From a virus, in IMG/VR virus record IMGVR_UViG_3300048894_000085, positions 1-41,436 of that record: a stretch of 41,436 nucleotides of DNA. One strand, given 5' to 3'. Of the stretch, positions 1-40,765 are shown piece by piece. Below the pieces are notes generated by a model. The model was not told where the DNA came from, ran no database searches, and saw only the letters and a program-made list of their open reading frames with translations. Numbering within the stretch: position 1 is the first letter of the stretch; each line of letters starts with the position of its first letter. The position numbers and the translations under genes are program-made.

Positions 1-127
1 CGCAGAAACAAAAATCTTATATGAAGTATCAAATATCCTATTTAGATAAACATATTATAGATAATGCTTATCTAAGACATAAAATAGAAGAACGATTAGT
101 TAAAAAGAAGGCCGCTAATAAACGGGA
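1..127. repeat. Terminal 127-bp direct repeat, identical to 41310-41436 (circular closure / assembly overlap)
   Basis: Base-by-base comparison: 'cgcagaaacaaaaatcttatatgaag...gccgctaataaacggga' occurs at both ends of the window. Confidence 0.95.
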
Positions 128-317
128 TCAAGACGAGTTAACTAATCATTATGTTAAAAGAAAAATAGCATATAGAACAGGGCTTAAATCAGCTGATATT
201 CCTGAAGAGTTAGTTGAAGCAAAAAGAGCGGTTATGGTATTGAATCGTGGTATTAGACGAAAAAGAGATGAATTTATTTTTAATTACATAGAGGAGAAAG
301 AAAATGGCAAAAGATGA
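1..317 (+). CDS. C-terminal part of the junction-spanning double zinc-ribbon/basic protein (continues from 40766-41436; 286 aa in total)
   Basis: The frame of ORF 21..317 is continuous with the open frame from ATG 40766 once the 127-bp overlap is collapsed (41330 equals position 21, and 41330-40766=564=188 codons). It ends with the family motif 'HYVKRKI...IPEELVEAKRAVMVLNRGI'. Confidence 0.7.
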   Translation, partial: QKQKSYMKYQISYLDKHIIDNAYLRHKIEERLVKKKAANKRDQDELTNHYVKRKIAYRTGLKSADIPEELVEAKRAVMVLNRGIRRKRDEFIFNYIEEKENGKR

Positions 318-951: not shown

Positions 952-1824
952 ATGATAGAGAATAAAAAAGAAGTAAATTCAATTAAACTTTTACATGCTA
1001 TTCGTCAAATTCCCGCTACTTTAATCTCTGCAAACGAAAAATATATCTTAACTATTATTCTCTCTTGTATAAATATTGACAATATAACTTGGCATTCAAT
1101 GGATATTATTGCTGAATTTGCATGTGTTAGTAGATGGACAATTAGTAGACATATTAAAACATTAGAAGATAAAAAATTCATTTCAATCGTAAAACCTAAT
1201 CATTATACCCATGATGAAACAAATCATTATAGTTTAAATATTGACCTAATCTTATCTTTTTCTGTGGATAAGTCGCGTAGCAAATTGCTACATGATCCTA
1301 AAGTCGCGTTGCAATCTGCTACGCAATATACACAAGTCGCGTTGCAAGTTGCTCCAAGTCGCGTAGCAGATTGCAACGCCCTATATAATGAAGTAGAAGA
1401 AAAAAGAAGAAAGAAAGAAGAGAGGAAACGCGCACGCGAAAAACGCGTGCCACTCTCTGATTATTTTTTACCCAATGAAAAACTGAATGCGCTCATTCGT
1501 GAGACTTCAACCAAATCGGGCAAGTCCCCAGAAACCCTTTTGGCAAAATTTAAAAATATCCAAAAATCCAAAGACGGAACCAGCGCAGATTGGAATGCAG
1601 AGTATGAAAATTATTTGCACAATGAAAAACCACAGGGGTATGTCACAGGTGTCAGGGGTCAAGGCAACACTGAAATCAAAAGCACTGTACAATTTTATGG
1701 CGTAGGACACCCAGACTATGAGCGAGATAAGGAAATCAGGGAACGGGCAGAGCGAGAAAGGATTGCTAGAACTTCGCTCTCCCTCATGGATATGCAAGAA
1801 AAACGAAATAGCAAGTCACATTAA
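952..1824 (+). CDS. Replication initiator-like winged-HTH protein (lambda O / plasmid Rep-like) containing its own iteron array
   Basis: N-terminal HTH pattern 'MDIIAEFACVSRWTISRHIKTLEDKKFISIV'. Four 21-bp iterons and a purine tract lie inside the gene. C-terminal half is basic. Confidence 0.7.
   Translation: MIENKKEVNSIKLLHAIRQIPATLISANEKYILTIILSCINIDNITWHSMDIIAEFACVSRWTISRHIKTLEDKKFISIVKPNHYTHDETNHYSLNIDLILSFSVDKSRSKLLHDPKVALQSATQYTQVALQVAPSRVADCNALYNEVEEKRRKKEERKRAREKRVPLSDYFLPNEKLNALIRETSTKSGKSPETLLAKFKNIQKSKDGTSADWNAEYENYLHNEKPQGYVTGVRGQGNTEIKSTVQFYGVGHPDYERDKEIRERAERERIARTSLSLMDMQEKRNSKSH
1270..1376. repeat. Four iterons AAGTCGCGTWGCAAnnTGC (1270, 1301, 1334, 1356): candidate replication origin
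   Basis: Copies: aagtcgcgtagcaaattgcta / aagtcgcgttgcaatctgcta / aagtcgcgttgcaagttgctc / aagtcgcgtagcagattgcaa. Spacing is 31, 33 and 22 bp. Each contains a GCA..TGC dyad. Confidence 0.7.
1395..1450. promoter_or_regulatory. 34-nt all-purine tract (1395-1428) followed by palindrome GCACGCG-aaaaa-CGCGTGC (1432-1450), next to the iterons
   Basis: Read directly. The layout of iterons followed by an easily melted asymmetric tract mirrors lambda ori inside gene O. Confidence 0.55.
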
Positions 1825-3678: not shown

Positions 3679-3880
3679 AAAAAATAGAGCGGATTACTAT
3701 GTACCATCAATTTTAGCTATCGGATTTTTGATTATTTATTCAGTTATCCAGATTTATTGTCTTTTACACATTGGATCAGAAGATGATATTATTAGCGCAC
3801 GATTACAAGATATTTTAATCATGATTGTGAGTTACTATTTTGGCAGTAGTCAGGAAAAACTAAAAGTAGGAAGCAATTAA
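3647..3880 (+). CDS. Small membrane protein, holin candidate
   Basis: Hydrophobic span 'VPSILAIGFLIIYSVIQIYCLL' and a second one 'ILIMIVSYYF'. It overlaps the endolysin 3' end. Confidence 0.4.
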   Translation: MDGLIEPIALKKNRADYYVPSILAIGFLIIYSVIQIYCLLHIGSEDDIISARLQDILIMIVSYYFGSSQEKLKVGSN

Positions 3881-3893
3881 ACTTCCTACTTTT
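3862..3893. terminator. Bidirectional intrinsic terminator between convergent operons
   Basis: 12-bp perfect stem aaaagtaggaag / cttcctactttt with an 8-nt loop. There is an A-run on one side and a T-run on the other. Confidence 0.7.
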
Positions 3894-3899
3894 GATAAG

Positions 3900-4148
3900 T
3901 TATTTTAATAATTCATCAAGTGATTTATCAAACGCATTAAAAATAATGAGTTCTAATACTTTACTTTTTGCAATGTTAATGCGTGCTTCCTGACATAAGC
4001 GAGCGGTGAGTTCGTCTAGTGCTTCGACTGCATTTAAAGTAATACGATATGTTTTAGTGAGATATTTCGATTCGCTCATTAAACCTATTTTTTCATCTTT
4101 GGGACTACTGGTTGTCATCATGCTTGAAACTCCTTTTAATTTAGACAT
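3900..4148 (-). CDS. Ribbon-helix-helix partition adaptor (ParG/ParB-like, type Ib)
   Basis: 82-aa protein directly downstream of ParA and overlapping it. C-terminal 'YRITLNAVEALDELTARL...SKVLELII' has a beta-helix-helix pattern. Confidence 0.55.
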   Translation of the reverse strand: MSKLKGVSSMMTTSSPKDEKIGLMSESKYLTKTYRITLNAVEALDELTARLCQEARINIAKSKVLELIIFNAFDKSLDELLK

Positions 4149-4912
4149 ATAATTTCCTCTGCTAACGCGTTAAAATCTTTTGCACCGTTAGAATGCGGTG
4201 CATAAAGAAAAATGGGTAATCCTTCGATCTTCGCTTGATTGATATTTTCATCTTGACGAATAATGGTTTTCAGAATTTGGTCATAAATCATCATCTCAGA
4301 TAGTTTGGCTTCGATATATTCGTTCGTTTTAGATTTTCGTACATCCTTTTGGTTGCGTAAAATATGATAGGAATGCGCTCTGTTTTCTTTTATTTCACGC
4401 GTGACTGCAAATAAATCATACATACCTTCTAATGCATCATTTTCATAAGTAATAGGAACGATAATTTTATCTGCTGCTAAAATTGCATTCACTGTTAAAT
4501 CGCCAAGAGTAGGGCAGCAATCAATAAAACAATAATCAAACTGATCTTTTATTTTATGAAGTTGACGATATAAAAGAGTTTCACGATAAGGCCGTGAACT
4601 CATTTCACGTTGCGCCATAGCTAAATCAATACGTGCGGGCATAATTGATAAATATTGAGCTATTTCTCGATTATCACTGACTGACATAATAGCACGGGAT
4701 GGATGGGATATTCTCTGTAAAATAACGTCTGAGACTGTATAAGCATCTTTTAAGTGAGTATCTGGAATGGTGCCTTTAGTTGCATTGCCACTCGGATCAA
4801 GATCGACTAATAAAGTACGTTTTGATTTTGTCGCAAAACAATAAGCGAGATTATAAGCGCACGCTGTTTTACCTACGCCCCCTTTTTGATTAATTAAAGC
4901 TATGATTTTCAT
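4136..4912 (-). CDS. parA: ParA/Soj-family partition ATPase
   Basis: Deviant Walker A 'NQKGGVGKT', 'LLVDLDPSGNAT', 'IDCCP' and 'VPI' motifs. 258 aa. Confidence 0.9.
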   Translation of the reverse strand: MKIIALINQKGGVGKTACAYNLAYCFATKSKRTLLVDLDPSGNATKGTIPDTHLKDAYTVSDVILQRISHPSRAIMSVSDNREIAQYLSIMPARIDLAMAQREMSSRPYRETLLYRQLHKIKDQFDYCFIDCCPTLGDLTVNAILAADKIIVPITYENDALEGMYDLFAVTREIKENRAHSYHILRNQKDVRKSKTNEYIEAKLSEMMIYDQILKTIIRQDENINQAKIEGLPIFLYAPHSNGAKDFNALAEEIICLN

Positions 4913-4913
4913 T

Positions 4914-5351
4914 TTATTTTGTCCTATCTTTTATTAATTGTTTTAATTGAATTAATGCACGTTTTGTCTGTATCAATTCTTGTGGTATTTTACTTTTTTT
5001 TATTTTTAATTGAGAAAGTAATAATCTTTTTATATAAGAATCATGAAGTGTCTCTTTTGTTTTTTTAGAATATTGTTTTTGATAGTCAATTCCATTAGGT
5101 GATTTATTCCATTGCAAAGCTTTTTGTATACGTTTTTCGCGATTTTTCAATTCAGTTTTTTTATTATAAATATAAACTGCATTAGGATTCTTAGCTTTAA
5201 AATTCATTGTTTTAATAATATTACATAAACGACATAATTTAACTAATAATGGTTTTCCTGTTTTTTTAGAAATATTTTTTGATGAATAAATCGCAATGTC
5301 TTTTTCATCTAAAATACCATGAGTTTTACATTTTTTATGTTTATGCATCAT
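4914..5351 (-). CDS. Zinc-ribbon/basic/helical family protein (paralogue B)
   Basis: 'CKTHG...LCRLCN' followed by 'LHDSYIKRLL...IPQELIQTKRALIQLKQLI'. The same architecture occurs in 13675-14121 and twice in 40766-317. Confidence 0.7.
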   Translation of the reverse strand: MMHKHKKCKTHGILDEKDIAIYSSKNISKKTGKPLLVKLCRLCNIIKTMNFKAKNPNAVYIYNKKTELKNREKRIQKALQWNKSPNGIDYQKQYSKKTKETLHDSYIKRLLLSQLKIKKSKIPQELIQTKRALIQLKQLIKDRTK

Positions 5352-5550
5352 AGGTAGCTTGAGCCAGCTCGTCTGTAGTAGATTTTTCATTCCATTCCCA
5401 TGTATTTAATTGCATTACACGGCGTATTTTAGATAACGGGAAGTAACGCGCTACAGTATCGGCAGTGTATTTAAAAGCTGTAAAAGCGAGTGTATGTTCT
5501 TTATTGCTGCCACGTTTATCCTCTTCGTAAACTTGATACCAGATAATCAT
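5341..5550 (-). CDS. Hypothetical protein, 69 aa
   Basis: ORF packed tightly within the operon. No motif recognised. Confidence 0.5.
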   Translation of the reverse strand: MIIWYQVYEEDKRGSNKEHTLAFTAFKYTADTVARYFPLSKIRRVMQLNTWEWNEKSTTDELAQATYDA

Positions 5551-5724
5551 TTAAACATCCTCACTAGCATGGTTTTTCATTTTAATAGCGATTAGTTGTA
5601 ATGTTTCTAATAATTGAGCCATATTGATATTTAATTCTAGTAATTCACGAGCTATATTGTCGATTACCGCTAATTCAGTGGTTAAATTATCGCCATGGAT
5701 CATATTGTATAGTTCTTTTCTCAT
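5551..5724 (-). CDS. Small hypothetical protein, 57 aa
   Basis: ATGA overlap with the upstream stop, and TAA directly abuts the next ATG. Translation is MRKELYNMIHGDNLTTELAVIDNIARELLELN... Confidence 0.45.
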   Translation of the reverse strand: MRKELYNMIHGDNLTTELAVIDNIARELLELNINMAQLLETLQLIAIKMKNHASEDV

Positions 5725-6089
5725 TCTTCATCATCCTCTAAACATTTAATATAATGGGTTATATCTTCGCGAGTCATAGAATTAATGTAGCAATAAGCTA
5801 GATCATCTTTAGCTAAAGTCATTAAATCATCAAATATAAGTTGGAATTCTTTTTCGGTATATTCGCCTCGTTTATTTTTTTCTAATTCAGAGTCAATATC
5901 GATAGAAAGAGATTTAATAAAACCAAGAAGCTCTGTTTCTTCCCAATGAGTGAATGGCTCCCAGATTGTTATATTATCATCGCTCGCAACAATCATAGAT
6001 AAAATACTATCAAAGTTATGACTCCTTGGATAATCACTCATGATATGATTTAAAACTAATATTTGTCCTATTGTTAAAGAATTATTCAT
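5721..6089 (-). CDS. Acidic hypothetical protein
   Basis: ORF with a very acidic C-terminus (..CLEDDEE). Probable start is MNNSL at 6089. Confidence 0.55.
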   Translation of the reverse strand: MNNSLTIGQILVLNHIMSDYPRSHNFDSILSMIVASDDNITIWEPFTHWEETELLGFIKSLSIDIDSELEKNKRGEYTEKEFQLIFDDLMTLAKDDLAYCYINSMTREDITHYIKCLEDDEE

Positions 6090-6402
6090 TTTTATCACTC
6101 CAAACATAAAGATCAGCGCAAATACGCTCTACAGCATACCAACATAATAAGTTTTTAAATTGAGCCATAGAGCCAACATCTTTTTGACCACTCCATGTTT
6201 TTATAAATTCAATGATGGTGAGACCTTGGTTATCAGCATCATTCCATAATAGATCCCATATTTCATCCTCGAATTTGTCATGAAACTCGGATGTTTCATG
6301 GTAATAGATAAAACCACCTACGCCACCGGAACAGCCATGTTTAGCGACATCCTGAATTTCGTCAGGGGATAGATTTTCGAGAATATATTCTTTAATTGTC
6401 AT
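6082..6402 (-). CDS. Hypothetical protein, 106 aa
   Basis: ORF with 'VAKHGCSGGVGGFIYYHETSEF...DEIWDLL'. First gene after promoter 6426-6454. Confidence 0.6.
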   Translation of the reverse strand: MTIKEYILENLSPDEIQDVAKHGCSGGVGGFIYYHETSEFHDKFEDEIWDLLWNDADNQGLTIIEFIKTWSGQKDVGSMAQFKNLLCWYAVERICADLYVWSDKNE

Positions 6403-6425
6403 GTTCGTTTCCTGTAATGTTAATA

Positions 6426-6454
6426 TATTATAATATAATGTTAATATAAATGCA
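6426..6454 (-). promoter_or_regulatory. Candidate sigma70 promoter TTGCAT-17-TATAAT (minus strand)
   Basis: Reverse complement of 6449-6454 is ttgcat, and of 6426-6431 is tataat. About 24 nt upstream of ATG 6402. Confidence 0.5.
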
Positions 6455-6461
6455 ACTATTT

Positions 6462-6641
6462 ATTAATGCGATTCTCCGTGTTCTTTGCGTCTATGTAATA
6501 GGATAGCGTTAATCATTCCTATTATATCTTCAAGATTTTCAGTAGGTACTGAATGTAAAGCTGAAAATACTATTTCGCCATTTCCAGCATTTTTAAGAGC
6601 ATTAACTAAATTTTGCATTCTAATTTTTTGAGATTTTTTCA
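6462..6641 (-). CDS. Small hypothetical protein, 59 aa
   Basis: TAATG overlap with the upstream gene. Translation is MKKSQKIRMQNLVNALKNAGNGEIVFSALHS... Confidence 0.45.
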
Positions 6642-6992
6642 TTACTTTGCCCTCAATTGAGCGTTAATCGATTTAATGGGATATTTTTGCGAGTTTAAGG
6701 TTTTCCACTGGCCTATTTCGTTATAGAGTGGGGTGCCATAAAGTAATTCATTTAAAGTTTCTTGAGGAATTGTATTGCGCCAATAACTATCTTCTGAATT
6801 AGAAACTTGTAAAGTACCCCACCATTTTGATATTTGACGCTTTGTAGTAGGTGACCAGTTTTTAACGGTACAGGCGAATATCCCGTCTGGAAAACGAATT
6901 GCCACGGGTGTTGAATAGCTTATTAAAATACGTGTTTCGTGGTCATCTAGGATTAGTTCGCGAGTGTTGGCTGAGATGCGGATTACTTTCAT
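6642..6992 (-). CDS. Hypothetical protein, 116 aa
   Basis: ATGA-coupled start MKVIRISANTRELI. Shares its first ~20 codons with ORF 7493-7678. Confidence 0.6.
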   Translation of the reverse strand: MKVIRISANTRELILDDHETRILISYSTPVAIRFPDGIFACTVKNWSPTTKRQISKWWGTLQVSNSEDSYWRNTIPQETLNELLYGTPLYNEIGQWKTLNSQKYPIKSINAQLRAK

Positions 6993-7273
6993 ACTATTTC
7001 CCTCGTTTTTAGGCCACATAAAAAAGCGTAAAGCTCGTTATATAAGTTAGATTTAGTGATATAACCTGAATGTGTAACTGTACGAATACCACCAGAATCG
7101 TTAACAGTTTGCACAAGTTTATAGCCACCATAAGCTGAATCTATATGATAATGACCTACATTAGCTTTAAACGGAGGATCATTGATTCTATCGCAATAAG
7201 AAAGAGGAGTTTTAGCCTCTTTGTTAATGACTTCAATTAGAGTGTTGAGTTGTTTCATTGTCGTTCGTGTCAT
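6989..7273 (-). CDS. Hypothetical protein, 94 aa
   Basis: ORF with 'NVGHYHIDSAYGGYKLV'. No function recognised. Confidence 0.55.
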   Translation of the reverse strand: MTRTTMKQLNTLIEVINKEAKTPLSYCDRINDPPFKANVGHYHIDSAYGGYKLVQTVNDSGGIRTVTHSGYITKSNLYNELYAFLCGLKTREIV

Positions 7274-7275
7274 AT

Positions 7276-7491
7276 TTAAGCCTCACTTTGTTTAATGATA
7301 TGTTGATCTACACTTCGTAATTGCCATTTCCAGTCACTTGGATTAATACGCACTAATCCCGCAAAAGCTAGAAGGGCAGTAGTTTGATCTTCCCACATTT
7401 CAGCATAAATAAGATTGTGTGCTATTCCACCGCCTGAGATAGCGCCGTATTTTTTCATTTCAGGGGTTTTAAGATAGATTCTATAATTCAT
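7276..7491 (-). CDS. Hypothetical protein, 71 aa
   Basis: ORF tightly packed within the operon. Confidence 0.5.
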   Translation of the reverse strand: MNYRIYLKTPEMKKYGAISGGGIAHNLIYAEMWEDQTTALLAFAGLVRINPSDWKWQLRSVDQHIIKQSEA

Positions 7492-7492
7492 G

Positions 7493-7678
7493 TTATGCCC
7501 TTATTAGTTCTTCAATAGTATTGACTTGCTTAGAGAAACGTACTTCAAAGCCGAGTTTCTGCATGGTTTGCATATCGGTAGTACTAAACGTCTTTTTGCC
7601 TGTAAGCTGAGCAAAGAGCTTACGTGTTTCACCCATGATTAGCTCGCGGGTGTTAGCTGAAATGCGGATTAGTTTCAT
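7493..7678 (-). CDS. Hypothetical protein, 61 aa
   Basis: Starts MKLIRISANTRELI. Its 5' 58 nt are homologous to 6929-6992. Confidence 0.5.
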   Translation of the reverse strand: MKLIRISANTRELIMGETRKLFAQLTGKKTFSTTDMQTMQKLGFEVRFSKQVNTIEELIRA

Positions 7679-7938
7679 TAGATTAACTCCTCTTTTCGTA
7701 GTTCACATATAGGCTTGCCGTTTTTTTTAGAGATAATGTACAAGGTGTTTTCATCTCCGATAGGATCGAATTCAACATGATTCTGAGATTGTGGTTTAAT
7801 ACCTATTTCCTTAAATATCTCTTTATCAGTTAATATATCGAGATTTAATGTATAAATGCCTTGATAATAATAATCATTAACTTGATATCCGTCTTTATCA
7901 TTGCCCCATAGATCGTATGTGAATAGTCTGTATTTCAT
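7678..7938 (-). CDS. Hypothetical protein, 86 aa
   Basis: Start MKYRLFTYDLWGNDKDGYQV lies one nt after the upstream stop. The longer 111-aa version in the ORF track would overlap the upstream gene. Confidence 0.5.
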   Translation of the reverse strand: MKYRLFTYDLWGNDKDGYQVNDYYYQGIYTLNLDILTDKEIFKEIGIKPQSQNHVEFDPIGDENTLYIISKKNGKPICELRKEELI

Positions 7939-7939
7939 A

Positions 7940-8101
7940 TTAAGCCTCGTTAATGAAGTATTTAAGGTTTTCGTCTTGTAATCTGATACGGAGCTTTTGG
8001 GCGTAGTCTTCAATCGTTCTTAGTTCGCCCACTGTTAATTCATTTAATATTTCTTTTAGCTTAGCCTTACGATCTGATTGTGCGATTGTTTCAGTAGTCA
8101 T
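7940..8101 (-). CDS. Hypothetical protein, 53 aa
   Basis: Start MTTETIAQS is preceded by AGGA 8 nt upstream. First gene of the minus-strand operon. Confidence 0.45.
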   Translation of the reverse strand: MTTETIAQSDRKAKLKEILNELTVGELRTIEDYAQKLRIRLQDENLKYFINEA

Positions 8102-8134
8102 GTTGTTTGTCCTATATAATGTTAATGAAATGCT

Positions 8135-8163
8135 AATATAATACATTAATAATATAATAGCAA
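8135..8163 (-). promoter_or_regulatory. Candidate promoter TTGCTA-17-TATATT (minus strand)
   Basis: Reverse complement of 8158-8163 and 8135-8140. About 30 nt upstream of ATG 8101. Confidence 0.4.
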
Positions 8164-8518: not shown

Positions 8519-8545
8519 TAGTTAAGTGAAGTTAATAGAAGTTAG
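8519..8545. repeat. Three AAGTTA boxes spaced exactly 10 bp apart, upstream of terS
   Basis: tagttaa (8519), aagttaa (8529) and aagttag (8539). Confidence 0.4.
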
Positions 8546-8597: not shown

Positions 8598-9035
8598 ATG
8601 ATGCGAAAACCTTTAACGCCAATGCAATATTCATTCTGTAATGAATACATCAAGAATGGTTTTAATGCTTATCAAGCTGCGTTACATGCTGGTTATAGTG
8701 AAAGCTATGCTAATACTCAAATGGGCGCCTTAATGAATAAACCTGTCATTAAAGATCGCTTAATTAAAGCTTATAAGAAAATGGAAAACGCTCAGATTGA
8801 TAAGCTTGCAATCACATTCACTGATAAAGCTAACATACTGTTACGCATTATCTATGATGTGATACCTAAAGATGGCTCAGAGCCTAAGCGAGCATACTAT
8901 AAGGATGCGATTAAGGCTATGGCTGAGCTAAACAAGATGCAAGGTGATTACGCACCTGAGAAACGCATGAACATGACAGTGAATGCAACGCTTGATAAGC
9001 TCACTGAAGCACGCAAAGCGTATGAGGAGTTCTAA
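8598..9035 (+). CDS. terS: Terminase small subunit (Terminase_2-like)
   Basis: 'LTPMQYSFCNEYIKNGFNAYQAALHAGYSESYANTQMGALMNKPVIKDRL' matches the conserved N-terminal HTH signature of Terminase_2 small subunits. Confidence 0.8.
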   Translation: MMRKPLTPMQYSFCNEYIKNGFNAYQAALHAGYSESYANTQMGALMNKPVIKDRLIKAYKKMENAQIDKLAITFTDKANILLRIIYDVIPKDGSEPKRAYYKDAIKAMAELNKMQGDYAPEKRMNMTVNATLDKLTEARKAYEEF

Positions 9036-9086
9036 GCTATTGATTCGTCTTGTGAATATAAATGTAATAAAATATAATATAATGTA

Positions 9087-9115
9087 TTGACAATGTAATA
9101 CATTATATTTATAAT
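9087..9115 (+). promoter_or_regulatory. Perfect consensus sigma70 promoter TTGACA-17-TATAAT
   Basis: ttgaca at 9087-9092, a 17-nt spacer, and tataat at 9110-9115. Confidence 0.7.
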
Positions 9116-9121
9116 ACTCTC

Positions 9122-9456
9122 ATACATTAACTAACGAGGTGAAGCAATGAGATACCAACTAAACAAGATGATCCTAACGATACTTTGGAATGCAAACAGA
9201 TTGAAGATGATAAGCATCAAGACTCAACTAAGACTAACGAGACTGTGTGGGATGTAACCCACGCAGCGTGGCGTGGTGAGGCTCCAAACGGGGCAGGGGT
9301 GGCATGGAGCGGGGGATAGGATCTGGAAATGCAGGGGTGAGATTAAAGAATGTAAAGGTGTGCTGCATCCTTAAACTCCTATTTAACATTTAGGTTTTTA
9401 GAAAAATCCTTAAACTCTTAAACAACTTTTATATATTTTAGAAAATTCAGGTAGAT
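9122..9456 (+). ncRNA. Candidate non-coding transcript or long leader; locally G/GC-rich (9245-9340) in an AT-rich genome
   Basis: Lies downstream of the consensus promoter. The only ATG ORF is 36 aa with implausible composition. The protein-like frame has no start codon. Contains stem-loops gtggg/cccac, ccacg/cgtgg and atgcag/ctgcat, four G4-5 runs, and a 12-bp direct repeat ATCCTTAAACTC at 9367 and 9406. Confidence 0.35.
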
Positions 9457-9780
9457 ATGATCATAGACATAACAAAATGCAAACAAATCTCAAAAAATAA
9501 ACAACTGTATTTATTAAAAACAGACGTATTAGAAGTCTTAGGTTGGGAGAATAAAAAATTAATACAGCTAGAAAACCTAGTTATAGAAAAAAATGAAAAT
9601 ATAAACATATTAATGGATAGCATATCTATTCTAAGACGTTCTGAAGAATCCTACAGTAAATACAGCGCTATGTATGAAAAAGAAACAGCTCGTATTGAAA
9701 ATGCCTTATTTAATATGGATGAATATTTAAACAAAATAAAAGAGCGATTAGACACAATAGAAAGTAAAATTAACTATTAG
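9457..9780 (+). CDS. Coiled-coil protein, 107 aa (first of three tandem related small genes)
   Basis: Heptad-like, K/E/N-rich. C-terminus is '...LDTIESKINY'. Confidence 0.5.
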   Translation: MIIDITKCKQISKNKQLYLLKTDVLEVLGWENKKLIQLENLVIEKNENINILMDSISILRRSEESYSKYSAMYEKETARIENALFNMDEYLNKIKERLDTIESKINY

Positions 9781-9789
9781 GACAAAAAA

Positions 9790-9966
9790 ATGACAACTAA
9801 AAAAAACGATGACTTAATGCTAGAAATGATTATAGGACTAGATAAAATTTTCAAAAAAACAATGGTAGAGAATCTGGAACGAGTCTCTAAACTAGAAAAA
9901 AACCTAGAAACAATAGATAGAGAACTCACAGCACTTATAAAAAATATAGAAAATAAAATAAACTAA
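9790..9966 (+). CDS. Coiled-coil protein, 58 aa
   Basis: Not in the ORF track. Translation is MTTKKNDDLMLEMIIGLDKIFKK...LIKNIENKIN. The 'taggaca-A-rich-ATG' junction also occurs at 9978. Confidence 0.45.
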   Translation: MTTKKNDDLMLEMIIGLDKIFKKTMVENLERVSKLEKNLETIDRELTALIKNIENKIN

Positions 9967-9977
9967 TAGGACAGAAA

Positions 9978-10160
9978 ATGGCATTTAATAAAGAGTATGA
10001 AGAAAAAATTCTCGTAAAAGTAGAATTAGTAGAAAAGATTCTAGAACGAGTGTTGGTGAGAATCAGTGAAAGATTACTTAAACTAGAAGAAAATGTAAAA
10101 GATTTAAACGATTTTGCTATAAATTTGAGTGTTCGTTTAGGTATAAAGAAGGAAGAGTAA
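9978..10160 (+). CDS. Coiled-coil protein, 60 aa
   Basis: ORF with heptad-like 'VELVEKILERVLVRISERLLKLEENVKDL'. Confidence 0.5.
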   Translation: MAFNKEYEEKILVKVELVEKILERVLVRISERLLKLEENVKDLNDFAINLSVRLGIKKEE

Positions 10161-10366
10161 TGATGGATTTAAACAGATTACAGACATTAAAGACAGTCTT
10201 AAGTGACCTACACACATTAAGCAGTTTTTATACTAATGCATCACCCGGATGGACACTCATTCAGAATGCATGGCGACATATTGACAGTATTTATCATTTA
10301 GAAAAAGACACTAATTTTGATAAAAAAACCCTAGGAGTTAAACAGGATGAACATGATGAAAATTAA
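10160..10366 (+). CDS. Hypothetical protein, 68 aa
   Basis: TAATG-coupled ORF. Confidence 0.5.
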   Translation: MMDLNRLQTLKTVLSDLHTLSSFYTNASPGWTLIQNAWRHIDSIYHLEKDTNFDKKTLGVKQDEHDEN

Positions 10367-10727
10367 AATCTGGAAAGAAGGCATTACCGAATCAGAACCC
10401 AATCAAATGTATCTTAAATTGGATTATGCAAATGGTGAAGATATTATGCTATCCGCCTGTGATATGGATGGCAATTATATAGAAAAAGGGGCACATATTT
10501 TATACATTGATAGTAATTATAGAGTCGTCGTTACATTAGATGGAATCAATCCAGCTATCCCTTTAAAAACGGATCTTGAAGATCAAGTCTTAATTTATGA
10601 GGAGACTGAAATTCATAATCTTGAAAAAGGTCGTTTTATGCAAATTGCATCAAAAGACATGTTAAGGCAGATAAAAGAGAAAATCGCAGAAGTAGAGCAA
10701 CCTGATCCAATACCCCAAACTCATTGA
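10347..10727 (+). CDS. Hypothetical protein, 126 aa
   Basis: ORF preceded by 'aggag'. Confidence 0.55.
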   Translation: MNMMKIKIWKEGITESEPNQMYLKLDYANGEDIMLSACDMDGNYIEKGAHILYIDSNYRVVVTLDGINPAIPLKTDLEDQVLIYEETEIHNLEKGRFMQIASKDMLRQIKEKIAEVEQPDPIPQTH

Positions 10728-10736
10728 GTAAAAAAT

Positions 10737-10874
10737 ATGCTTACATGGTTAATTTCTTTTATATTTGCATGGATAATAGCGTTTATATTTAAATGGGATA
10801 TGTTTCAGCTGTTAGTATTTGCAGCACTATATGCTATATTCCTTACATTAAAAGAGATAAAAAGTAAATTATGA
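10737..10874 (+). CDS. Small two-TM membrane protein, 45 aa
   Basis: Translation is MLTWLISFIFAWIIAFIFKWDMFQLLVFAALYAIFLTLKEIKSKL. ATGA overlap with the next gene. Confidence 0.4.
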   Translation: MLTWLISFIFAWIIAFIFKWDMFQLLVFAALYAIFLTLKEIKSKL

Positions 10875-11317
10875 ATCTAGAAGATCAAGTCTGTTCTATT
10901 GATAATGCAAATAAACTATTTACATTAATAGGTAAAAAAGACTGTTTGTATTACCATTCTTTTAACTATAAGTCATTCTCTGATGAGCAAATCGTAGATC
11001 ATGCTATTACCATGATCCCGTGTGGTGAACATATCCCAGCCTATACATCGGATGAGTTATTAGATTTATTACCTGCTTTTATTTATTACAACCTGTTTAA
11101 GCCTCATGATTATTATTATCTACGTATAGACAAAAGAACTTATAAAGATATTCGATACTGTGCTAAATATGTCTGTAGCTCGATCGAGGGAAAAGAGATT
11201 AATAATCCTTTCTTTGAAGTGCCAAGTCCTGCTAAGTCACATGCCAGCACACTGGCTGATTGTTTAGCTGAAATGCTGATTTATCTCCTTGAAAATAAAA
11301 TGATGGATATACCATGA
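10871..11317 (+). CDS. Hypothetical protein (tandem paralogue 1)
   Basis: 'MNLEDQVCSIDNANKLF...ADCLAEMLIYLLENKMMD' parallels the next ORF. Confidence 0.6.
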   Translation: MNLEDQVCSIDNANKLFTLIGKKDCLYYHSFNYKSFSDEQIVDHAITMIPCGEHIPAYTSDELLDLLPAFIYYNLFKPHDYYYLRIDKRTYKDIRYCAKYVCSSIEGKEINNPFFEVPSPAKSHASTLADCLAEMLIYLLENKMMDIP

Positions 11318-13369: not shown

Positions 13370-13685
13370 CAAATGCCAACGCTGTGATACAGAAGACGAT
13401 GAATTAAGAACGTTATTCATGTCATGTGGATATGATATGAGCGAACTTGAATTACCTTTTATGATAAAAACAGATGGATCATTTGCTTTATTTGTTTGCA
13501 AGCGATGCCGGTCTGACTGGATGCATTTTATCAGAATATGGTTTCAAACGAATGCGGCTTCTAATGAATCTATAGGAAGTGGAATTTTTATCAGAGATTT
13601 AGGTTGCAGTCGTGAAGTATCTGAGGAGACATTTAAAAAAATAAATCCTGATGTTGAACCCACGAGATTTATCGATGATCAGTAA
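13362..13685 (+). CDS. Cys-rich hypothetical protein, 107 aa
   Basis: 'MIDKCQRCDT...FVCKRCRSDW'. GAGG SD before ATG 13362. Confidence 0.5.
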   Translation: MIDKCQRCDTEDDELRTLFMSCGYDMSELELPFMIKTDGSFALFVCKRCRSDWMHFIRIWFQTNAASNESIGSGIFIRDLGCSREVSEETFKKINPDVEPTRFIDDQ

Positions 13686-14121
13686 GCGTTGCAAAAAACA
13701 CGGTGATTTAAAGCCAGAAGATATAAGAATAGATAAAAAATATGGTCGAGAATATAAAAATTGTGTCATATGTAGAAGAGAGTATCAACAAAAACAGACA
13801 TTAAGCGGTAAAAGAAAAGAACTATCCAGAAAAAGAAGACTTAAACCTGATTTTTTAGAAAAACGTAGGATGTACGATAAAAATTATCATGAACGCAGAT
13901 TAATAGTCGCTAAGGCTATGTATGAAAGAAAAAAAGATGATCCTTGTTTTAAAGAGAAAAATAATAAAAGAAGTCTAAATAGGTATAAGGTAATAAAAGA
14001 ATCATTTCATGATTCATATGTTAAAAAAGTATTACGATTTCACAAAGATGCAACACCTGAGATCTGTGAATTAAAAAGACAAATCATTTTACTGAAAAGA
14101 ATAATAAGGGCTAAAAGATGA
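13675..14121 (+). CDS. Zinc-ribbon/basic/helical family protein (paralogue C)
   Basis: 'RCKKHGDL...NCVICRR', a K/R-rich middle, then 'FHDSYVKKVL...TPEICELKRQIILLKRII'. Confidence 0.7.
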   Translation: MISKRCKKHGDLKPEDIRIDKKYGREYKNCVICRREYQQKQTLSGKRKELSRKRRLKPDFLEKRRMYDKNYHERRLIVAKAMYERKKDDPCFKEKNNKRSLNRYKVIKESFHDSYVKKVLRFHKDATPEICELKRQIILLKRIIRAKR

Positions 14122-14402: not shown

Positions 14403-14974
14403 TGGAAACGTGGTTTACGAGTGACACACATTTTGGCCATAGTAATATTCTTGAATATGAGAAAGAAGCGCGTCCCTTTGAAACAATAGAGAGAATGAAT
14501 GAAGAACTCATTATGCGTTGGAACTCAGTCGTCCATCCCCATGATACTATTTACCATCTTGGTGATTTTTGTTTTGGTAAACATAACCTTAGCATTGCTA
14601 CTCGACTTCATGGGAAAAAAAGGCTTATCCTGGGAAATCATGATCTATACCCTTGCAGCGATTATTTGCAGTATTTTAATAAAGTATTTGGTGTGACTTA
14701 TTGGAAAAATTGTATATTAAGTCATATGCCAATTCATCCTACTTTATTAGGATCACGATTTTTTTTAAATCTACACGGACATTTGCATAGTAAGCATGTT
14801 AGAAGAAATGTATTTCATATGATGGAAATTAAAACAGATAAAGGCCCTGTTCAATTTTCAAAATTTTTTCATGAAGAGAATGATCCTAATTATTTTAATG
14901 TGAGTTGTGAGCAAAATAACTTGACCCCGATCCACAGTGATGAAATTATGAAGCGATTGAAAGAGTTGGAATAA
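14402..14974 (+). CDS. Metallophosphoesterase (calcineurin-like phosphatase fold)
   Basis: 'FTSDTHFGH', 'YHLGDF', 'LGNHD' and 'HGHLH' motifs in canonical order. TAATG-coupled start METWF. Confidence 0.8.
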   Translation: METWFTSDTHFGHSNILEYEKEARPFETIERMNEELIMRWNSVVHPHDTIYHLGDFCFGKHNLSIATRLHGKKRLILGNHDLYPCSDYLQYFNKVFGVTYWKNCILSHMPIHPTLLGSRFFLNLHGHLHSKHVRRNVFHMMEIKTDKGPVQFSKFFHEENDPNYFNVSCEQNNLTPIHSDEIMKRLKELE

Positions 14975-14975
14975 T

Positions 14976-15077
14976 GGCAGTCGCGGCGTGGACAGTGACA
15001 CGCTAGAAACTTGCAGTACAGTACCCGCGTCGTAGTTGTAATCTGTACATAGCCAGTGCAATTCTGGCCGACTGCCT
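14976..15077 (+). ncRNA. tRNA-like element of uncertain identity (8-bp acceptor-like stem, T-arm-like hairpin, no canonical anticodon arm)
   Basis: ggcagtcg (14976-83) pairs with cgactgcc (15069-76). T-arm-like gccag-tgcaatt-ctggc at 15052-68. D-like stem gcgtg/cacgc. The central 48 nt fold as gtacag/ctgtac rather than as a 5-bp stem with a 7-nt loop. Confidence 0.2.
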
Positions 15078-15114
15078 TCCATTTTGTTGGAGTTAACAAT
15101 ATGGTTATGAAAAT

Positions 15115-15186
15115 TGGCATGTAGCATAAAGGTAATGCGGCATCCTGTTAAGGTGCTCAGTGCTGGTTCGAGTCCAGCCATGCCAG
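15115..15186 (+). tRNA. tRNA-Asn (anticodon GTT)
   Basis: Manual cloverleaf. Acceptor tggcatg/catgcca; D arm gcat-aaaggta-atgc; anticodon arm gcatc-ctGTTaa-ggtgc; variable region tcagt; T arm gctgg-ttcgagt-ccagc; discriminator G. U1-A72 and G73 match bacterial tRNA-Asn. Confidence 0.9.
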
Positions 15187-15388
15187 AAAGTTTATGGCCG
15201 AGGATAAGTTGAGACGTCCAGCTATTAGCTAATAACTGAAAGTAGGCCACTTGATTTAAATTGATACATTGGGTGAGTAAAAAGAAGGAGGCAATGTATT
15301 TAAATAAAGGAGGTGCGGATATTCGAGGCACTGTTGATTCTATTTTTTTACATCTCTGGGCGGCTTAAACCTATCTATTCTAAACTAT

Positions 15389-15477: not shown

Positions 15478-17007
15478 TTGAAAGACGCATCCACGGAGAG
15501 GGATCGTTTACAGCGTTCACTCTTGGCATTTACCCAAGATTTTTATTACCTTCGAACGGGTAGACGGTTTGATTTATCACAGCCTGTAGGGCGAGAGAGT
15601 CATTATCTGACTATCTGTAGGGCTTTGGTTAAAGTCATCAAGGGCGAAACAAAACGCCTGATGATCAATGTGCCACCTCGCTATGGTAAGACTGAGCTGC
15701 TCATTGAATTTGTCGCATGGGCATTATCTCAATATCCTGATTCTAATTTTCTCTATGTCTCCTATTCATTGGGTTTAGCCAAAAAACAAACAAAGACCAT
15801 TCGTCAGATTGTCGCTATGAATGAATATCGGGATTTGTTTGATGTAGCTTTATCGGGTGACACGGCAGCGCAAGGCAACTTTGAAACATCGCTCGGGGGC
15901 AGTGTCTACGCGGCTGGTGCGGATGGTGAAATAACAGGTCGTGGTGCAGGTATCAAAGGCAGTAATCGTTTTGGTGGCTGCATTGTTATTGATGATATTC
16001 ATAAACCATCTGAAGTCAGTTCTGACACGATGCGTAAAACGGTGAATGAATGGTATTTCAATACACTGCAATCCCGTCTGAATGATCCAGAGAGCACACC
16101 GATCATATTCATCGGCCAACGGCTTCATGAGGATGATCTGGCTGCAAATTTAATCAAGTCAGGTGATTGGGAGACGATTGTCATACCGGCGCTTGATGGG
16201 GCTGGAAATGCCTTACATCCTGAAATGCATAGTGTGACGATGCTGCGTAATATGCAGGAAACAATGCCCTATGTATTTTCTTCACAATACCAGCAAGATC
16301 CACTCCCTGCAGGAGGCGGTATCTTCAAACCTGAATGGTTCTTTCAGATGGATGATGAGCCTAATATTATTGCGACATTCATTACGGCTGACACTGCTGA
16401 AACCTCGAAAGATTATAACGATGCTACCGTATTCAGTTTCTTCGGTATCTATAAAATTGCGCATGGTGATATAGAGAGTGACATATTGGCCTTGCATTGG
16501 ATCGATTGTTTAGAGCTTCGTATTGAACCTAAAGATTTGGAGAAAGAGTTTTTAGCTTTTTATGCATCCTGTATGCGTCACCGGATTAAGCCACGCATTG
16601 CGGCAGTTGAGAGAAAGAGCACAGGTGTGACTCTGGCATCAGTCCTTAAGAATATTCGTGGTCTTACCATGATGGATGTGGAGCGTACAAAGCTCTCTGG
16701 TAATAAGACAACACGGTTTTTAGAGATACAACCTATTATTGCGAGTAAGCAAGTTTCATTGCCGTCCGATGGTAAGCATACGGTGATGGTATTGGAACAC
16801 ATGAGAAAGATCACGGCTAATGATACACATCGTCATGATGATATTGCAGATACTTTGTATGATGGTGTAAAGTTAGGCATTATAGACAATGTAATATTGT
16901 CACAAACCCCCGGTAAAGTCCAAGAGGACGAGCGTGTAGCGCGGGGGATAATGGGCGCATTTCATCGCGTTCTCCAATTAAGAAGTAAGCGTTATGCGGG
17001 TTTGTAG
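15478..17007 (+). CDS. terL: Terminase large subunit
   Basis: Walker A 'PPRYGKTEL', Walker B 'CIVIDDIHK', and C-terminal nuclease-type acidic motifs ('FITADTAE', 'HDDIADT'). 509 aa. TTG start preceded by 'aaggaag'. Confidence 0.9.
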   Translation: MKDASTERDRLQRSLLAFTQDFYYLRTGRRFDLSQPVGRESHYLTICRALVKVIKGETKRLMINVPPRYGKTELLIEFVAWALSQYPDSNFLYVSYSLGLAKKQTKTIRQIVAMNEYRDLFDVALSGDTAAQGNFETSLGGSVYAAGADGEITGRGAGIKGSNRFGGCIVIDDIHKPSEVSSDTMRKTVNEWYFNTLQSRLNDPESTPIIFIGQRLHEDDLAANLIKSGDWETIVIPALDGAGNALHPEMHSVTMLRNMQETMPYVFSSQYQQDPLPAGGGIFKPEWFFQMDDEPNIIATFITADTAETSKDYNDATVFSFFGIYKIAHGDIESDILALHWIDCLELRIEPKDLEKEFLAFYASCMRHRIKPRIAAVERKSTGVTLASVLKNIRGLTMMDVERTKLSGNKTTRFLEIQPIIASKQVSLPSDGKHTVMVLEHMRKITANDTHRHDDIADTLYDGVKLGIIDNVILSQTPGKVQEDERVARGIMGAFHRVLQLRSKRYAGL

Positions 17008-19595: not shown

Positions 19596-19789
19596 ATTGT
19601 TCTGACTTTACCGGAAATACCGCGATTGACTTGGGGTTTACGACAAGCTGTCATTGCCCCTGTCATCGCGGTATGCCTTTATGGATAGAATCTATTTGTT
19701 GTGCCTGCAGAATAAATAATTTCAAGAAAAGACCCTCATTAATCGTTATATCAGATAATACAAAAGGACAGTATGTCTATAAATCATGA
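19592..19789 (+). CDS. Possible Cys/His-rich mini-protein, 65 aa (alternatively a structured leader)
   Basis: ATGA overlap with the upstream stop. 'SCHCPCHRG...ICCACR'. It contains the 10-bp inverted repeat 19617-19626 / 19665-19674. Confidence 0.3.
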   Translation: MNCSDFTGNTAIDLGFTTSCHCPCHRGMPLWIESICCACRINNFKKRPSLIVISDNTKGQYVYKS

Positions 19790-20363
19790 ATACAGAGTGG
19801 ATGTTAAGATTAGAAATAATTTATTTATAGAACGGATTGAAGGAGCAGGTTATAAAACGATTGGTGAATTTTGTAGGATAAATAAAATCAGTCAATCAAG
19901 AATTAATGAAATAATTGCTATGAAGTTATCACCCCTCATGTCTAACGGAAAATTTAGATTTCATATCATAAAAACAGCGGATGTTTTAGGTTGCTCTCCT
20001 GAAGATTTATTTACAGATACGCAAATGTCGATGGCTATTAAAAATAATAAATATTGTCTTAAAGTGAATGAAGCTGAAGTAAAATGTATGATAGATCAAA
20101 ATAATCAGCCTCTATTATTAGAAGATCATGTTTTTGAAGATCAAAAAAATAAATTATTAAAAAAAGCACTAGAGACTTTACCTATTCGAGAAAAAAAGAT
20201 ATTGTCTCTTAGATTTGGTTTAGATGATGGTAAAGAGCATACATACCAAGACATTAGTGATGAATTTGGTTGTAGTCGTGAGAATATAAGACGAATTGAG
20301 TCTCAAGCACTACGTAGGCTTAGACATCCTTCAAGATCAGATCAATTGCAGGATTTAATTTAA
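19773..20363 (+). CDS. HTH protein with a C-terminal sigma70 (RpoD) region-4 domain and no region 2
   Basis: C-terminus 'LPIREKKILSLRFGLDDGKEHTYQDISDEFGCSRENIRRIESQALRRLRHPSRSDQLQDLI' follows RpoD region 4.1/4.2, including 'LRHPSRS'. The N-terminus has an XRE-like HTH ('IGEFCRINKISQSRINEI'). Confidence 0.8.
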   Translation: MSINHEYRVDVKIRNNLFIERIEGAGYKTIGEFCRINKISQSRINEIIAMKLSPLMSNGKFRFHIIKTADVLGCSPEDLFTDTQMSMAIKNNKYCLKVNEAEVKCMIDQNNQPLLLEDHVFEDQKNKLLKKALETLPIREKKILSLRFGLDDGKEHTYQDISDEFGCSRENIRRIESQALRRLRHPSRSDQLQDLI

Positions 20364-39767: not shown

Positions 39768-39974
39768 ATGAAAAGCTCAGAAATGATAAAAAGAATACGC
39801 TTGTCTTTCTGTCTTGATCAGAAAGAATTCGGCGAACTCATCGCAATGAGCAGACAAGCAATCTGGCAATATGAAAAAGGTATTCGTAAACCTCGGCTAC
39901 CTACTATTCGTAAATTGTTAATGTTAGCAAAAAAAAATCATATAAAGACATGCACAGAAGATTTTATGGAATAA
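39768..39974 (+). CDS. XRE-family HTH regulator (Cro-like position)
   Basis: 'LDQKEFGELIAMSRQAIWQYEKGIRKPRLPTIRKL' is a classic HTH_3 pattern. 68 aa. Confidence 0.8.
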   Translation: MKSSEMIKRIRLSFCLDQKEFGELIAMSRQAIWQYEKGIRKPRLPTIRKLLMLAKKNHIKTCTEDFME

Positions 39975-40760: not shown

Positions 40761-40765
40761 ATTTT

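Follow-up and report, generated by a model that had tools for sequence, protein, structure and literature searches.

Phage-plasmids are increasingly seen as gene shuttles between phages and plasmids, and the catalogues that list them hold mostly siphoviruses and myoviruses from cultured Enterobacteria and Firmicutes. Dedrick et al. reportedly described, in 2016, cluster A mycobacteriophages that lack an integrase and form parABS prophages (ref. 38 of PMC11652158). Both phage-plasmids with ParA-based partition and integrase-less parABS phages are already known, and podoviral phage-plasmids are rare. Indeed, 95.9% of the typed phage-plasmids in one survey were sipho- or myoviruses and 'few are Podoviridae', some of them in the F116 community (Pfeifer et al. 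2021, PMC7969092); furthermore, circular metagenomic viral scaffolds of 37-38 kb ('Group 10') with ParA/ParB and toxin-antitoxin (TA) genes have been called putative phage-plasmids (Bellas et al. 2015, PMC4490671). The present analysis concerns viral DNA of 41,436 bp and about 36% G+C (IMG/VR record IMGVR_UViG_3300048894_000085; the whole stretch is called the window in the following) and, within it, a pair of genes encoding a ParA-type ATPase and a small protein of 82 amino acids (aa), its candidate partner in DNA partition. The genome in the window belongs to a P22-like podovirus that has not been cultured and whose prophage is most likely, with a probability that we place at roughly 0.6, kept as a low-copy circular plasmid, i.e. 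as a phage-plasmid.

The ParA-type ATPase and its operon

The pair, the operon that leads to it and the hairpin that follows it are located as listed.

4136-4912, minus strand: parA, 258 aa, deviant-Walker-A ATPase of the ParA/Soj type (Pfam and PHROG matches)
3900-4148, minus strand: gene of the ParA partner (candidate centromere-binding protein), 82 aa, overlapping parA by 13 nt
4914-8146, minus strand: leftward operon 5' of parA, about 15 small genes including DUF7222, DUF8033 and the Zn-ribbon protein of 4914-5390 (from the packing of the reading frames and Pfam)
3862-3893, no strand assigned: bidirectional intrinsic-terminator hairpin, 13-bp stem followed by a T-run, 3' of the 82-aa gene

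Both open reading frames (ORFs) stand where the initial annotation of this DNA had put them, with their 13-nt overlap and with the deviant Walker A motif KGGVGKT at residues 10-16 of ParA (DNA 4865-4885), in an N-terminus that begins MKIIALINQKGGVGKT. The motif conforms to the superfamily pattern xKGGxxK[ST] with its signature lysine, and the protein is matched over its full length by a P-loop model, the individual matches being Pfam AAA_31 at 4e-45 (residues 1-179), CbiA at 5e-17 (residues 4-234) and phrog_164 'ParA-like partition protein' at 5e-53 (residues 1-255). The solved structures nearest to it are a ParA family protein (8ray, 1.8e-31) and the Soj proteins of T. thermophilus (7e-26) and Helicobacter, with PDB ParA/Soj alignments that span residues 2-255; MinD (1e-11), delta (3.5e-7) and ParF (5e-6) match more weakly. 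An N-terminal helix-turn-helix (HTH) extension is absent, there being no HTH domain match and the Soj alignment starting from residue 2; at 258 aa and without the N-terminal HTH/regulatory domain of type Ia, the protein has the build of the small ParAs (about 200-260 aa) of type Ib partition systems. It lies above none of the curated NCBIfam cutoffs (the best model is ParA_partition NF041546, 96.5 bits against a cutoff of 180; the MinD, SopA and RepA models each score below theirs) and is therefore, as judged from sequence, a generic member of the ParA family and not an equivalog of a characterised protein. The nearest plasmid ParAs, 41-42% identical, are those of Skermanella, Candidatus Megaira and the Rickettsia felis plasmid pRF; scans of genome contigs and viral contigs returned only distant bacterial ParAs (29-37%) and gave no clue to the host.

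A single base separates the stop codon of the ORF at 4914-5390 (minus strand) from the parA ATG, a tight packing behind another ORF that had been noted before, and parA is the second-to-last gene of a leftward operon that begins near 8146 and in which internal promoter-like sites are weak only. The hairpin at 3862-3893 ends both this operon and the convergent lysis operon.

An identity of this ParA as a MinD/Soj-type protein with another role had been named at the outset as an outcome that would speak against partition. The similarity to chromosomal Soj-type proteins, which are the most similar to this ParA, could be taken to indicate a host-directed effector, that is, a Soj/MinD mimic that disturbs host segregation, division or another ParA cargo, with the small protein as its adaptor. 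MinD fits poorly (1e-11 in the structure comparison), since its models reach no cutoff and score far lower than those for ParA. Among annotated proteins, plasmid ParAs are the closest relatives, and the partner, encoded by phages or plasmids, diverges together with ParA and has a core of predicted DNA-binding type; moreover, the PADLOC defence models gave one match at P-loop level only, with no defence or anti-defence model matched. A host-directed role is thus the least credible of the explanations considered here, and we regard it as very improbable.

The 82-aa partner and its homologue in a plasmid

The partner could start alternatively at 4121, which would shorten it to 73 aa; the N-terminal MSKLKG conserved in homologues that do not overlap parA favours the first ATG. 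Neither Pfam nor the PHROGs give a match to the protein, and the same holds for ParB_N or HTH domains, so that this ORF is, as in type Ib, a small partner gene directly downstream of parA and unrelated to the HTH-type ParB. Six homologues were found in the first search, 25 with a profile of the small genes downstream of the relatives' parA, and 137 family clusters at 50% identity, nearly all of 56-130 aa, in an exhaustive profile search.

The family alignment opens with a variable basic N-terminal tail, whose first residues, MSKL.G, are conserved and which bears the motif K-(I/L)-G-L (K20-I-G-L in the window), and continues with a core made of a T33-x-R35 segment and two amphipathic helices, the second of which opens with the pattern [KR]-[ST]-x-[IV]-[LIM]-E-[LA]-[LI]-I; T33, R35, L44 and E66 are invariant among the small proteins of the ParA-carrying relatives, and K20 is nearly so. 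In the AlphaFold2 model of the monomer, computed with 25 sequences (predicted local distance difference test score of 78 overall and 89-96 in the core), residues 1 to about 25 are disordered, residues 30-37 are extended and helices occupy residues 38-55 and 61-73. The model would match the monomer expected of a ribbon-helix-helix (RHH) protein, whose strand pairs only in the dimer, and makes an RHH fold of the 82-aa protein plausible. With hhalign, the strand and helix A fall on an RHH_1 antitoxin and helix B on ParG (the ParG sequence was checked against 1p94), in the correct register and with a probability below 3%, and Pfam run on 25 family members returned nothing significant for the fold. 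The RHH-type label given to the protein in the initial annotation is, then, compatible with the data, but no test of the fold reaches significance.

On this model the core would be a putative DNA-binding module. The tail is likely an element of interaction with ParA, because of its analogy with the N-terminal ParA-stimulating peptides that ParB/Spo0J and ParG carry. Its distribution follows that of parA: the tail is present in all ten of the ParA-linked family members seen (10/10), a distant tail-bearing member, P0173, again lies directly behind ParA, and the tail is absent from the partner homologues of 63-68 aa that occupy the same operon end in the ParA-less relatives L035 (3111-3317) and L037/L038 (4001-4192). 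Because these tail-less copies persist in relatives without ParA, the partner is probably a transcriptional regulator too. In L037 and L038 there is, in addition, a gene for a protein of 166 aa whose only domain is of the arm-type DNA-binding kind known from integrases (Arm-DNA-bind_3).

The pair is not restricted to phages. A contig resembling a mobilizable plasmid (GCA_002059165.1, MWWI01000051.1; L034 in our set), on which a MobA/MobL relaxase and RepA_C occur along with three TA pairs and a resolvase, encodes at its positions 9078-11042 a ParA that is 41% identical to that of the window, directly followed by a 96-aa protein and preceded by RepA_C. The 96-aa protein aligns with the profile of the partner family over 59 columns with an hhalign probability of 95.4% (E 1.7e-8). 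Since the two pairs are homologous, the ParA-partner pair is therefore a module common to phages and true plasmids.

Relatives that carry the pair

Contig sizes in the 120 best ParA-homologue clusters (39-71% identity) bunch at 35-45 kb, with none above 45.3 kb, and the relatives are a deep, uncultured clade of P22-portal phages of 36-45 kb, with G+C contents of 33-40%. Those with the most similar ParA (L001, L003/L004 and L026, 54-71%) are syntenic with the window, sharing parA, the small gene, the convergent endolysin, Rep, the Cro-like HTH gene and Sak4/Gp157, and contain no integrase in a 20-kb stretch around parA. More distant ones (L020, L021-24, L027/28, L030-33 and L039, ParA 45-49%) are P22-portal phages of 37-40 kb with another layout, in which an IncFII-RepA-like rep is divergent from parA and the small gene, and the recombination module is of the RecT type. 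In all the relatives with ParA that were examined (L001, L003, L026, L020, L021, L027, L030 and L039), parA has a small gene immediately downstream, and the proteins encoded by these small genes are homologous, forming one family.

Between the window and the L020/L021/L030 group, identities amount to 42-44% for the portal, 46-48% for the large terminase subunit TerL and 45-49% for ParA, whereas the replication modules (O-like versus IncFII-RepA-like) and the recombination modules (Sak4/Gp157 versus RecT; the module found in the window is Sak4/Gp157/SSB-like) have been swapped. Since the divergence of ParA parallels that of portal and TerL while the other modules differ, the par pair travels with the virion core. 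One subgroup of the relatives adds a ParE/RHH TA pair and a 188-aa serine recombinase, and another a 245-aa Xer-like recombinase; TA pairs and small resolvases are typical plasmid stability functions.

The nine contigs with a ParA identical to that of the window show phage context only, with no host junction. A junction to a host chromosome, which had been singled out beforehand as evidence that would overturn an extrachromosomal state, was found neither in these nine contigs nor in the dozens of contigs of relatives. One relative was recovered from 57 samples. In 51 of these its contigs are 20-50 kb long, and it never stands on a longer one; the contigs listed measure 37.7-40.6 kb and have differing assembly breakpoints. 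Megablast against the phage and plasmid collections gave no match, either for positions 1-25000 of the window or for the relative L030.

Some further observations concern the same relatives. L030-L033 and their kin, the P0146 element, are P22-portal phages of about 37.7 kb with an IncFII-RepA-like rep, parA and RecT, and an identical 94-aa partner of this element occurs in 57 samples and, as the same protein, under a metagenome-assembled genome (MAG) labelled Hanamia sp. The samples include what, from the name of the JGI record, we take to be an old soil metagenome from Iowa. An occurrence this wide may stem from a host that is very common, or else from contamination by a reagent or in the laboratory. 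Two leads from the portal were discarded: Acinetobacter seifertii pAS51-4, the only portal match among plasmids in tblastn, is a P22-like phage with an integrase and without ParA, and the Vibrio crassostreae podoviruses, which give the best portal matches, are likewise without ParA and are not of the published phage-plasmid TG34 type.

A complete P22-like phage genome without a recognisable recombinase

The topology and virion genes of the window rest on the features below.

41310-41436, no strand assigned: terminal direct repeat of 127 nt, exact copy of 1-127 (unit genome 41,309 bp)
15478-36429, plus strand: P22-like packaging/morphogenesis module with TerL, portal, scaffold, capsid, gp4-/gp10-type connectors, ejection protein and fibres
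15478-17007, plus strand: TerL, packaging gene
17023-19206, plus strand: P22-type portal (Pfam P22_portal, 2e-86)
8598-9035: TerS, packaging gene

The 127-nt terminal repeat, together with three contigs of other samples or assemblies (L013, L014 and L015) that cross the window junction at 99.9-100% identity, means that the molecule is circular or circularly permuted. The closed circle of the initial annotation is upheld to this extent; as evidence of a plasmid it does not serve, being equally expected from headful-packaged virion DNA. With its 41.3 kb, the circle makes up the whole genome of this P22-like podovirus. The P22-like gp1/gp4/gp10-type genes that had been recognised before are confirmed by profile matches, in that the portal (2e-86) is joined by gp10-type Hc3 at 3e-47 and, weakly, by gp4-type Ad3 at 2e-4; the ejection protein matches at 6e-7. 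The portal is about 22% identical to that of any isolated phage. Tape-measure, tube and sheath genes were not detected among the window proteins, and for this reason, together with the portal, the gp4-/gp10-type hub and the ejection proteins, the virion is taken to be that of a P22-like podovirus.

With a GH108 endolysin as the lysis gene, the window holds the full set of virion, packaging and lysis functions (TerS, TerL, portal, scaffold, connectors, ejection protein and endolysin) that is looked for in a phage-plasmid; plasmid-type replication and partition genes are present as well, the Rep being, however, lambda-O-like, as in lambdoid phages.

All stop-to-stop ORFs of at least 75 aa in the six frames were scanned with Pfam, and no integrase, tyrosine or serine recombinase, resolvase, DDE transposase or protelomerase domain was found among them, in agreement with the earlier statement that no recombinase, transposase or protelomerase exists in any frame. 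Within the sensitivity of Pfam, this bears on a further explanation, namely that the phage is a temperate integrator that uses a host XerCD-type or an unrecognised recombinase, with ParA stabilising only the excised or pre-integration circle. Integration of this kind is disfavoured also by the absence of host junctions from the nine contigs of this phage and the dozens of relatives' contigs, by the absence of any family contig above 46 kb and by the failure to find a dif site within 3 mismatches of the E. coli-type consensus, which may not be that of the host. Most window ORFs are unannotated, three paralogous Zn-ribbon proteins have no assigned function, a ParA-less relative encodes the Arm-DNA-bind_3 protein and one relative has the Xer-like recombinase, and on these grounds integration retains some standing, as an improbable explanation.

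The replication initiator and the regulatory region

Replication and regulation involve the following features.

952-1824, plus strand: Rep, replication initiator, with an N-terminal HTH_36 domain (Pfam 3e-6) and matches to phrog_270, phrog_391 and other initiator families
1270-1378, no strand assigned: four iterons of about 23 nt (AAGTCGCGTWGCAA..TGC) inside the rep ORF, with internal dyads and an A-rich stretch after them
39768-39974, plus strand: Cro/CI-type HTH_3 protein, 68 aa, at a divergent promoter region (Pfam HTH_3 1e-6; PHROG regulator/repressor families)

The iterons are presumed to be the origin. The Rep orthologue of L003, at 59% identity, shares the iteron core, and comparable intragenic iteron arrays occur in L001, L003 and L026. 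Similarity of Rep to lambda O is found at the profile level only (phrog 'O-like', 2e-7). An initiator with iterons inside its own ORF is the lambda O/ori layout, ordinary for lambdoid and P22-like phages. The Rep protein with an iteron origin, as placed at 952-1824 by the initial annotation, is indeed present, but does not by itself point to a plasmid.

The 68-aa HTH_3 protein is the sole recognisable phage regulator in the window; the divergent 156-aa gene beside it has no match, and no S24-type CI was found with Pfam or the PHROGs.

The search for a centromere

Centromere candidates were sought by k-mer cluster statistics, by motifs shared between the window and L003, and among dispersed 10-14-mers and perfect palindromes. 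Three sites enter the discussion.

8520-8544, plus strand: three phased AGTTA-N5 direct repeats in the 92-nt gap upstream of terS
9087-9115: perfect sigma-70 promoter TTGACA-17-TATAAT, flanked by AATGTA/TACATT repeats
737-769: palindrome ATGACTATAAGTCAT and, next to it, a half-site (about 190 nt upstream of rep)

As had been observed at first sight, no centromere array flanks the cassette, repeat statistics and motif comparison having found none up- or downstream, and none of the dispersed 10-14-mers and palindromes of the window stands out. The repeated sites upstream of parA that double as operator in type Ib systems are likewise missing from the window, a difference that concerns the layout and leaves a centromere elsewhere possible. 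Each of the close relatives has, like the window, the iteron array in rep as its sole statistically clear repeat cluster, and the iteron motif is also the sole clustered motif that the window has in common with L003; the partner proteins of the two agree in their recognition strand. Such sharing cannot separate binding by Rep from binding by the partner, because the two Reps are also 59% identical.

Three candidate sites had been put forward before this search. The one at 8519-8545 proved the best of them: its AGTTA-N5 repeats are real, the triple being unique in the window (0 triples in 200 shuffles), and L003, with a partner of the same recognition strand, has two copies at the same place upstream of terS. 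The repeats may nevertheless equally well be a TerS/pac site or a regulatory site or operator as the missing centromere. The candidate at 9367-9417 was abandoned, as it belongs to a stretch with promoter and leader that relatives conserve, and has the look of an element of transcription. At 737-769, the palindrome with its half-site upstream of rep is probably an operator. Two clusters that emerged from the search itself were also rejected: the five AATGTA copies around the 9087-9115 promoter are not kept as a repeat in relatives, and the three CAATTAA copies just upstream of parA are marginal and absent from L003. In the subgroup of relatives in which rep and parA are divergent, two or three direct repeats GCTGTAYKTGCT lie in the par promoter region; they are candidate sites in what would be, by sequence, the canonical type Ib layout.

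The promoter at 9087-9115 is followed by a G+C-rich leader of about 340 nt (region 9050-9456), downstream of terS, and promoter and leader are conserved in position and sequence in L003 and L001, although the proteins of these two relatives share no more than 50-70% identity with those of the window. A late promoter of the PR' kind, whose leader is processed or subject to antitermination, could account for the region; at 9225-9400 the leader shows no better folding than shuffled sequences (z = -0.4), and Rfam has no match to it.

Plasmid prophage or virulent phage

The extrachromosomal, low-copy prophage with a type Ib-style pair that the initial annotation had proposed is the best-supported reading, by virtue of the conserved pair, its plasmid homologue, the TA pairs and resolvases of relatives and the lack of host junctions; its arguments from Rep, from the circle and from the RHH fold are weaker than had been stated. 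Gene identities, synteny, conservation, the absence of recombinase domains and the circular or permuted topology are direct observations, and the mechanism can be outlined by drawing, for all its steps, on what is known of the protein families. Rep would start replication at the iterons inside its gene, in the manner of lambda O at ori (cf. the lambda-dv plasmids). The 82-aa protein would dimerise via its strand-helix-helix core and bind a centromere on the phage DNA, while its flexible basic N-terminal tail, with K20-I-G-L, would contact ParA and stimulate its ATPase activity. ATP-bound ParA dimers would coat the nucleoid non-specifically, and a diffusion-ratchet would part the sister plasmid copies before cell division, as in the type Ib systems ParF/ParG and delta/omega.

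Several findings weigh against a plasmid prophage. Relatives were found neither in PLSDB nor in the phage collection, and no cultured lysogen stands behind the lifestyle. Comparison with PDB sequences places chromosomal Soj-type proteins nearer to ParA than delta or ParF. As to the partner, the PDB sequence search with the 82-aa protein came back empty, the top matches in two Foldseek runs were plant TCP domains (RHH-like; root mean square deviation 2.3-2.6 Å, E about 3), and Pfam applied to 131 representatives of the family gave one RHH_1 (1.7e-5) and one BrnA (0.009) match. The window contains no centromere array, the rep iterons being its only significant repeat cluster, and the Rep/iteron unit is by itself no evidence of a plasmid.

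Other findings on the same side suit a virulent or transient-carrier phage, in which the pair would act during infection by positioning or separating replicating DNA, or the small protein would regulate transcription with ParA as its modulator. The six-frame Pfam scan and the PHROGs revealed in the window neither a maintenance repressor of the CI type nor a TA pair, nor any function for the resolution of multimers. Furthermore, parA lacks a promoter or operator of its own and lies at the tail of a 4.2-kb operon of about 17 genes of early type, which is atypical for an autoregulated type Ib cassette, and a circular assembly without host junctions is equally expected of a virulent headful-packaging phage. 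Synteny with the window, but no parA, is found in L035 (41.2 kb) and L037/L038 (40.8 kb), and their retention of a tail-less partner homologue at the same operon end suggests a role independent of ParA, probably a regulatory one. ParA genes are found also in phage records not known as plasmids, e.g. those of cyanophages, and an effect of N15 sop on late gene expression, mentioned in a passage of PMC11652158 that cites its ref. 39, may be compared. What the virulent phage does not readily explain is the presence of a homologous ParA-partner pair in a genuine plasmid backbone and the joining of the pair, in relatives, with small resolvases, a TA pair and a RepA of plasmid type. The ParA-less syntenic relatives themselves imply that ParA is dispensable for the phage as such and unneeded for lytic growth, which fits accessory maintenance better than a core role in infection. 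A virulent or transient-carrier phage is, on this evidence, unlikely, though a good deal less so than integration or an effector directed at the host.

The plasmid prophage being preferred, its extension to the whole clade is more tentative. The phages may be a widespread and hitherto undescribed clade with the plasmid state as its ancestral lifestyle, built on an unannotated partner family that comprises at least 137 clusters and occurs also in true plasmids, with the tail gained or lost along with parA and with a centromere that does not adjoin the genes, whether dispersed, formed by the iterons or represented by the AGTTA repeats; we hold this broader proposal to be somewhat short of an even chance.

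Other features of the window and its host

Several features of the window touch neither the pair nor its function.

15114-15187, plus strand: tRNA-Asn (GTT), directly upstream of terL
19773-20363, plus strand: sigma-70 region 4 protein, 196 aa, between portal and scaffold (Pfam 4e-18, RpoD C-terminal models)
4914-5390, minus strand; 13651-14121, plus strand; 40751-41309 joined to 1-317, plus strand: three Zn-ribbon paralogues with CxxC motifs
590-612: terminator-like hairpin (GCCAGTCGAAAGACTGGC), 3' of the 93-aa gene that ends at 585

The tRNA is the only Rfam match in the window, and a spurious antisense ORF of 157 aa (14858-15331) overlies it. The 196-aa protein has sigma-70 region 4 only, at its C-terminus, and may serve late transcription as a sigma-like factor of the phage or as an appropriator. 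The Zn-ribbon paralogues share the C-terminal motif IPxEL..K.A...L.R, and the junction-spanning copy of 286 aa has this unit twice; none has a Pfam match, and one copy weakly matches phrog_2340 'endonuclease'.

Shine-Dalgarno usage is strong in the window (34 of the 55 genes, against a background of 8.5%). It contradicts a host in the Bacteroidota, which one relative's protein, labelled Hanamia sp. MAG, had brought into consideration. The host is probably a low-GC Gram-negative bacterium.

Implications

If the plasmid prophage is correct, a clade of P22-like podoviruses with partition in place of integration would widen the range of morphotypes among phage-plasmids, and would provide, at 41 kb, a compact model with naturally occurring sister genomes that have or lack ParA. 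It would also add a new family of small ParA partners common to phages and plasmids. The partner family is without a Pfam model, and the window and the relative compared with it match nothing in the phage and plasmid collections. For the prediction of lifestyle from metagenomes, the consequence would be that 'no integrase' need not equal 'virulent'.

Comparison with known partition systems and phage-plasmids

The type Ib systems, as represented by ParF/ParG of TP228 and delta/omega of pSM19035, have in common with the window a small Walker-type ParA without N-terminal HTH, followed by a partner gene of fewer than 100 aa whose product has a flexible N-terminal tail and a predicted strand-helix-helix core and is a probable regulator. 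The direct repeats in the promoter region upstream of parA are shared by the distant phage subgroup only. The window cassette differs from type Ib in a partner without detectable sequence similarity to ParG or omega, in a ParA that is closer to Soj than to ParF or delta, and in its position at the end of a long phage operon, without an upstream operator/centromere.

Among phages, the parABS prophages of actinobacteriophages follow the same plan, in that a partition cassette replaces the integration cassette in a temperate backbone and its presence varies among relatives. They are, however, siphoviruses of Actinobacteria with a partner of the ParB type (HTH) and an adjacent parS, whereas the phage of the window is a P22-like podovirus, its partner is small and RHH-like, and no site adjoins the genes. 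P1 (ParA/ParB/parS), N15 (SopAB, with dispersed centromeres) and SSU5 likewise combine a plasmid-type initiator with a ParA-family ATPase and are independent of an integrase, but they are myo- or siphoviruses of 46-110 kb, with the large HTH-bearing ParA of type Ia and a ParB-type partner. They also have defined repressors, and P1 has, in addition, Cre/lox and a TA pair, none of which was recognised in the window.

At the level of the initiator, the window resembles lambda O/ori (lambda-dv) in the N-terminal HTH of Rep and in the four dyad-containing iterons with an A-rich stretch inside its own ORF, and departs from it in that no P-type helicase loader or DnaB was recognised beside Rep. The phage-plasmid lifestyle had at first been described as best known from P1, N15 and SSU5-type phages and not from podoviruses; podoviral examples are indeed rare, but they are known (PMC7969092). 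With the podoviral members of the F116 community and the 'Group 10' circles, the phage of the window shares, by their description, its size class and its logic.

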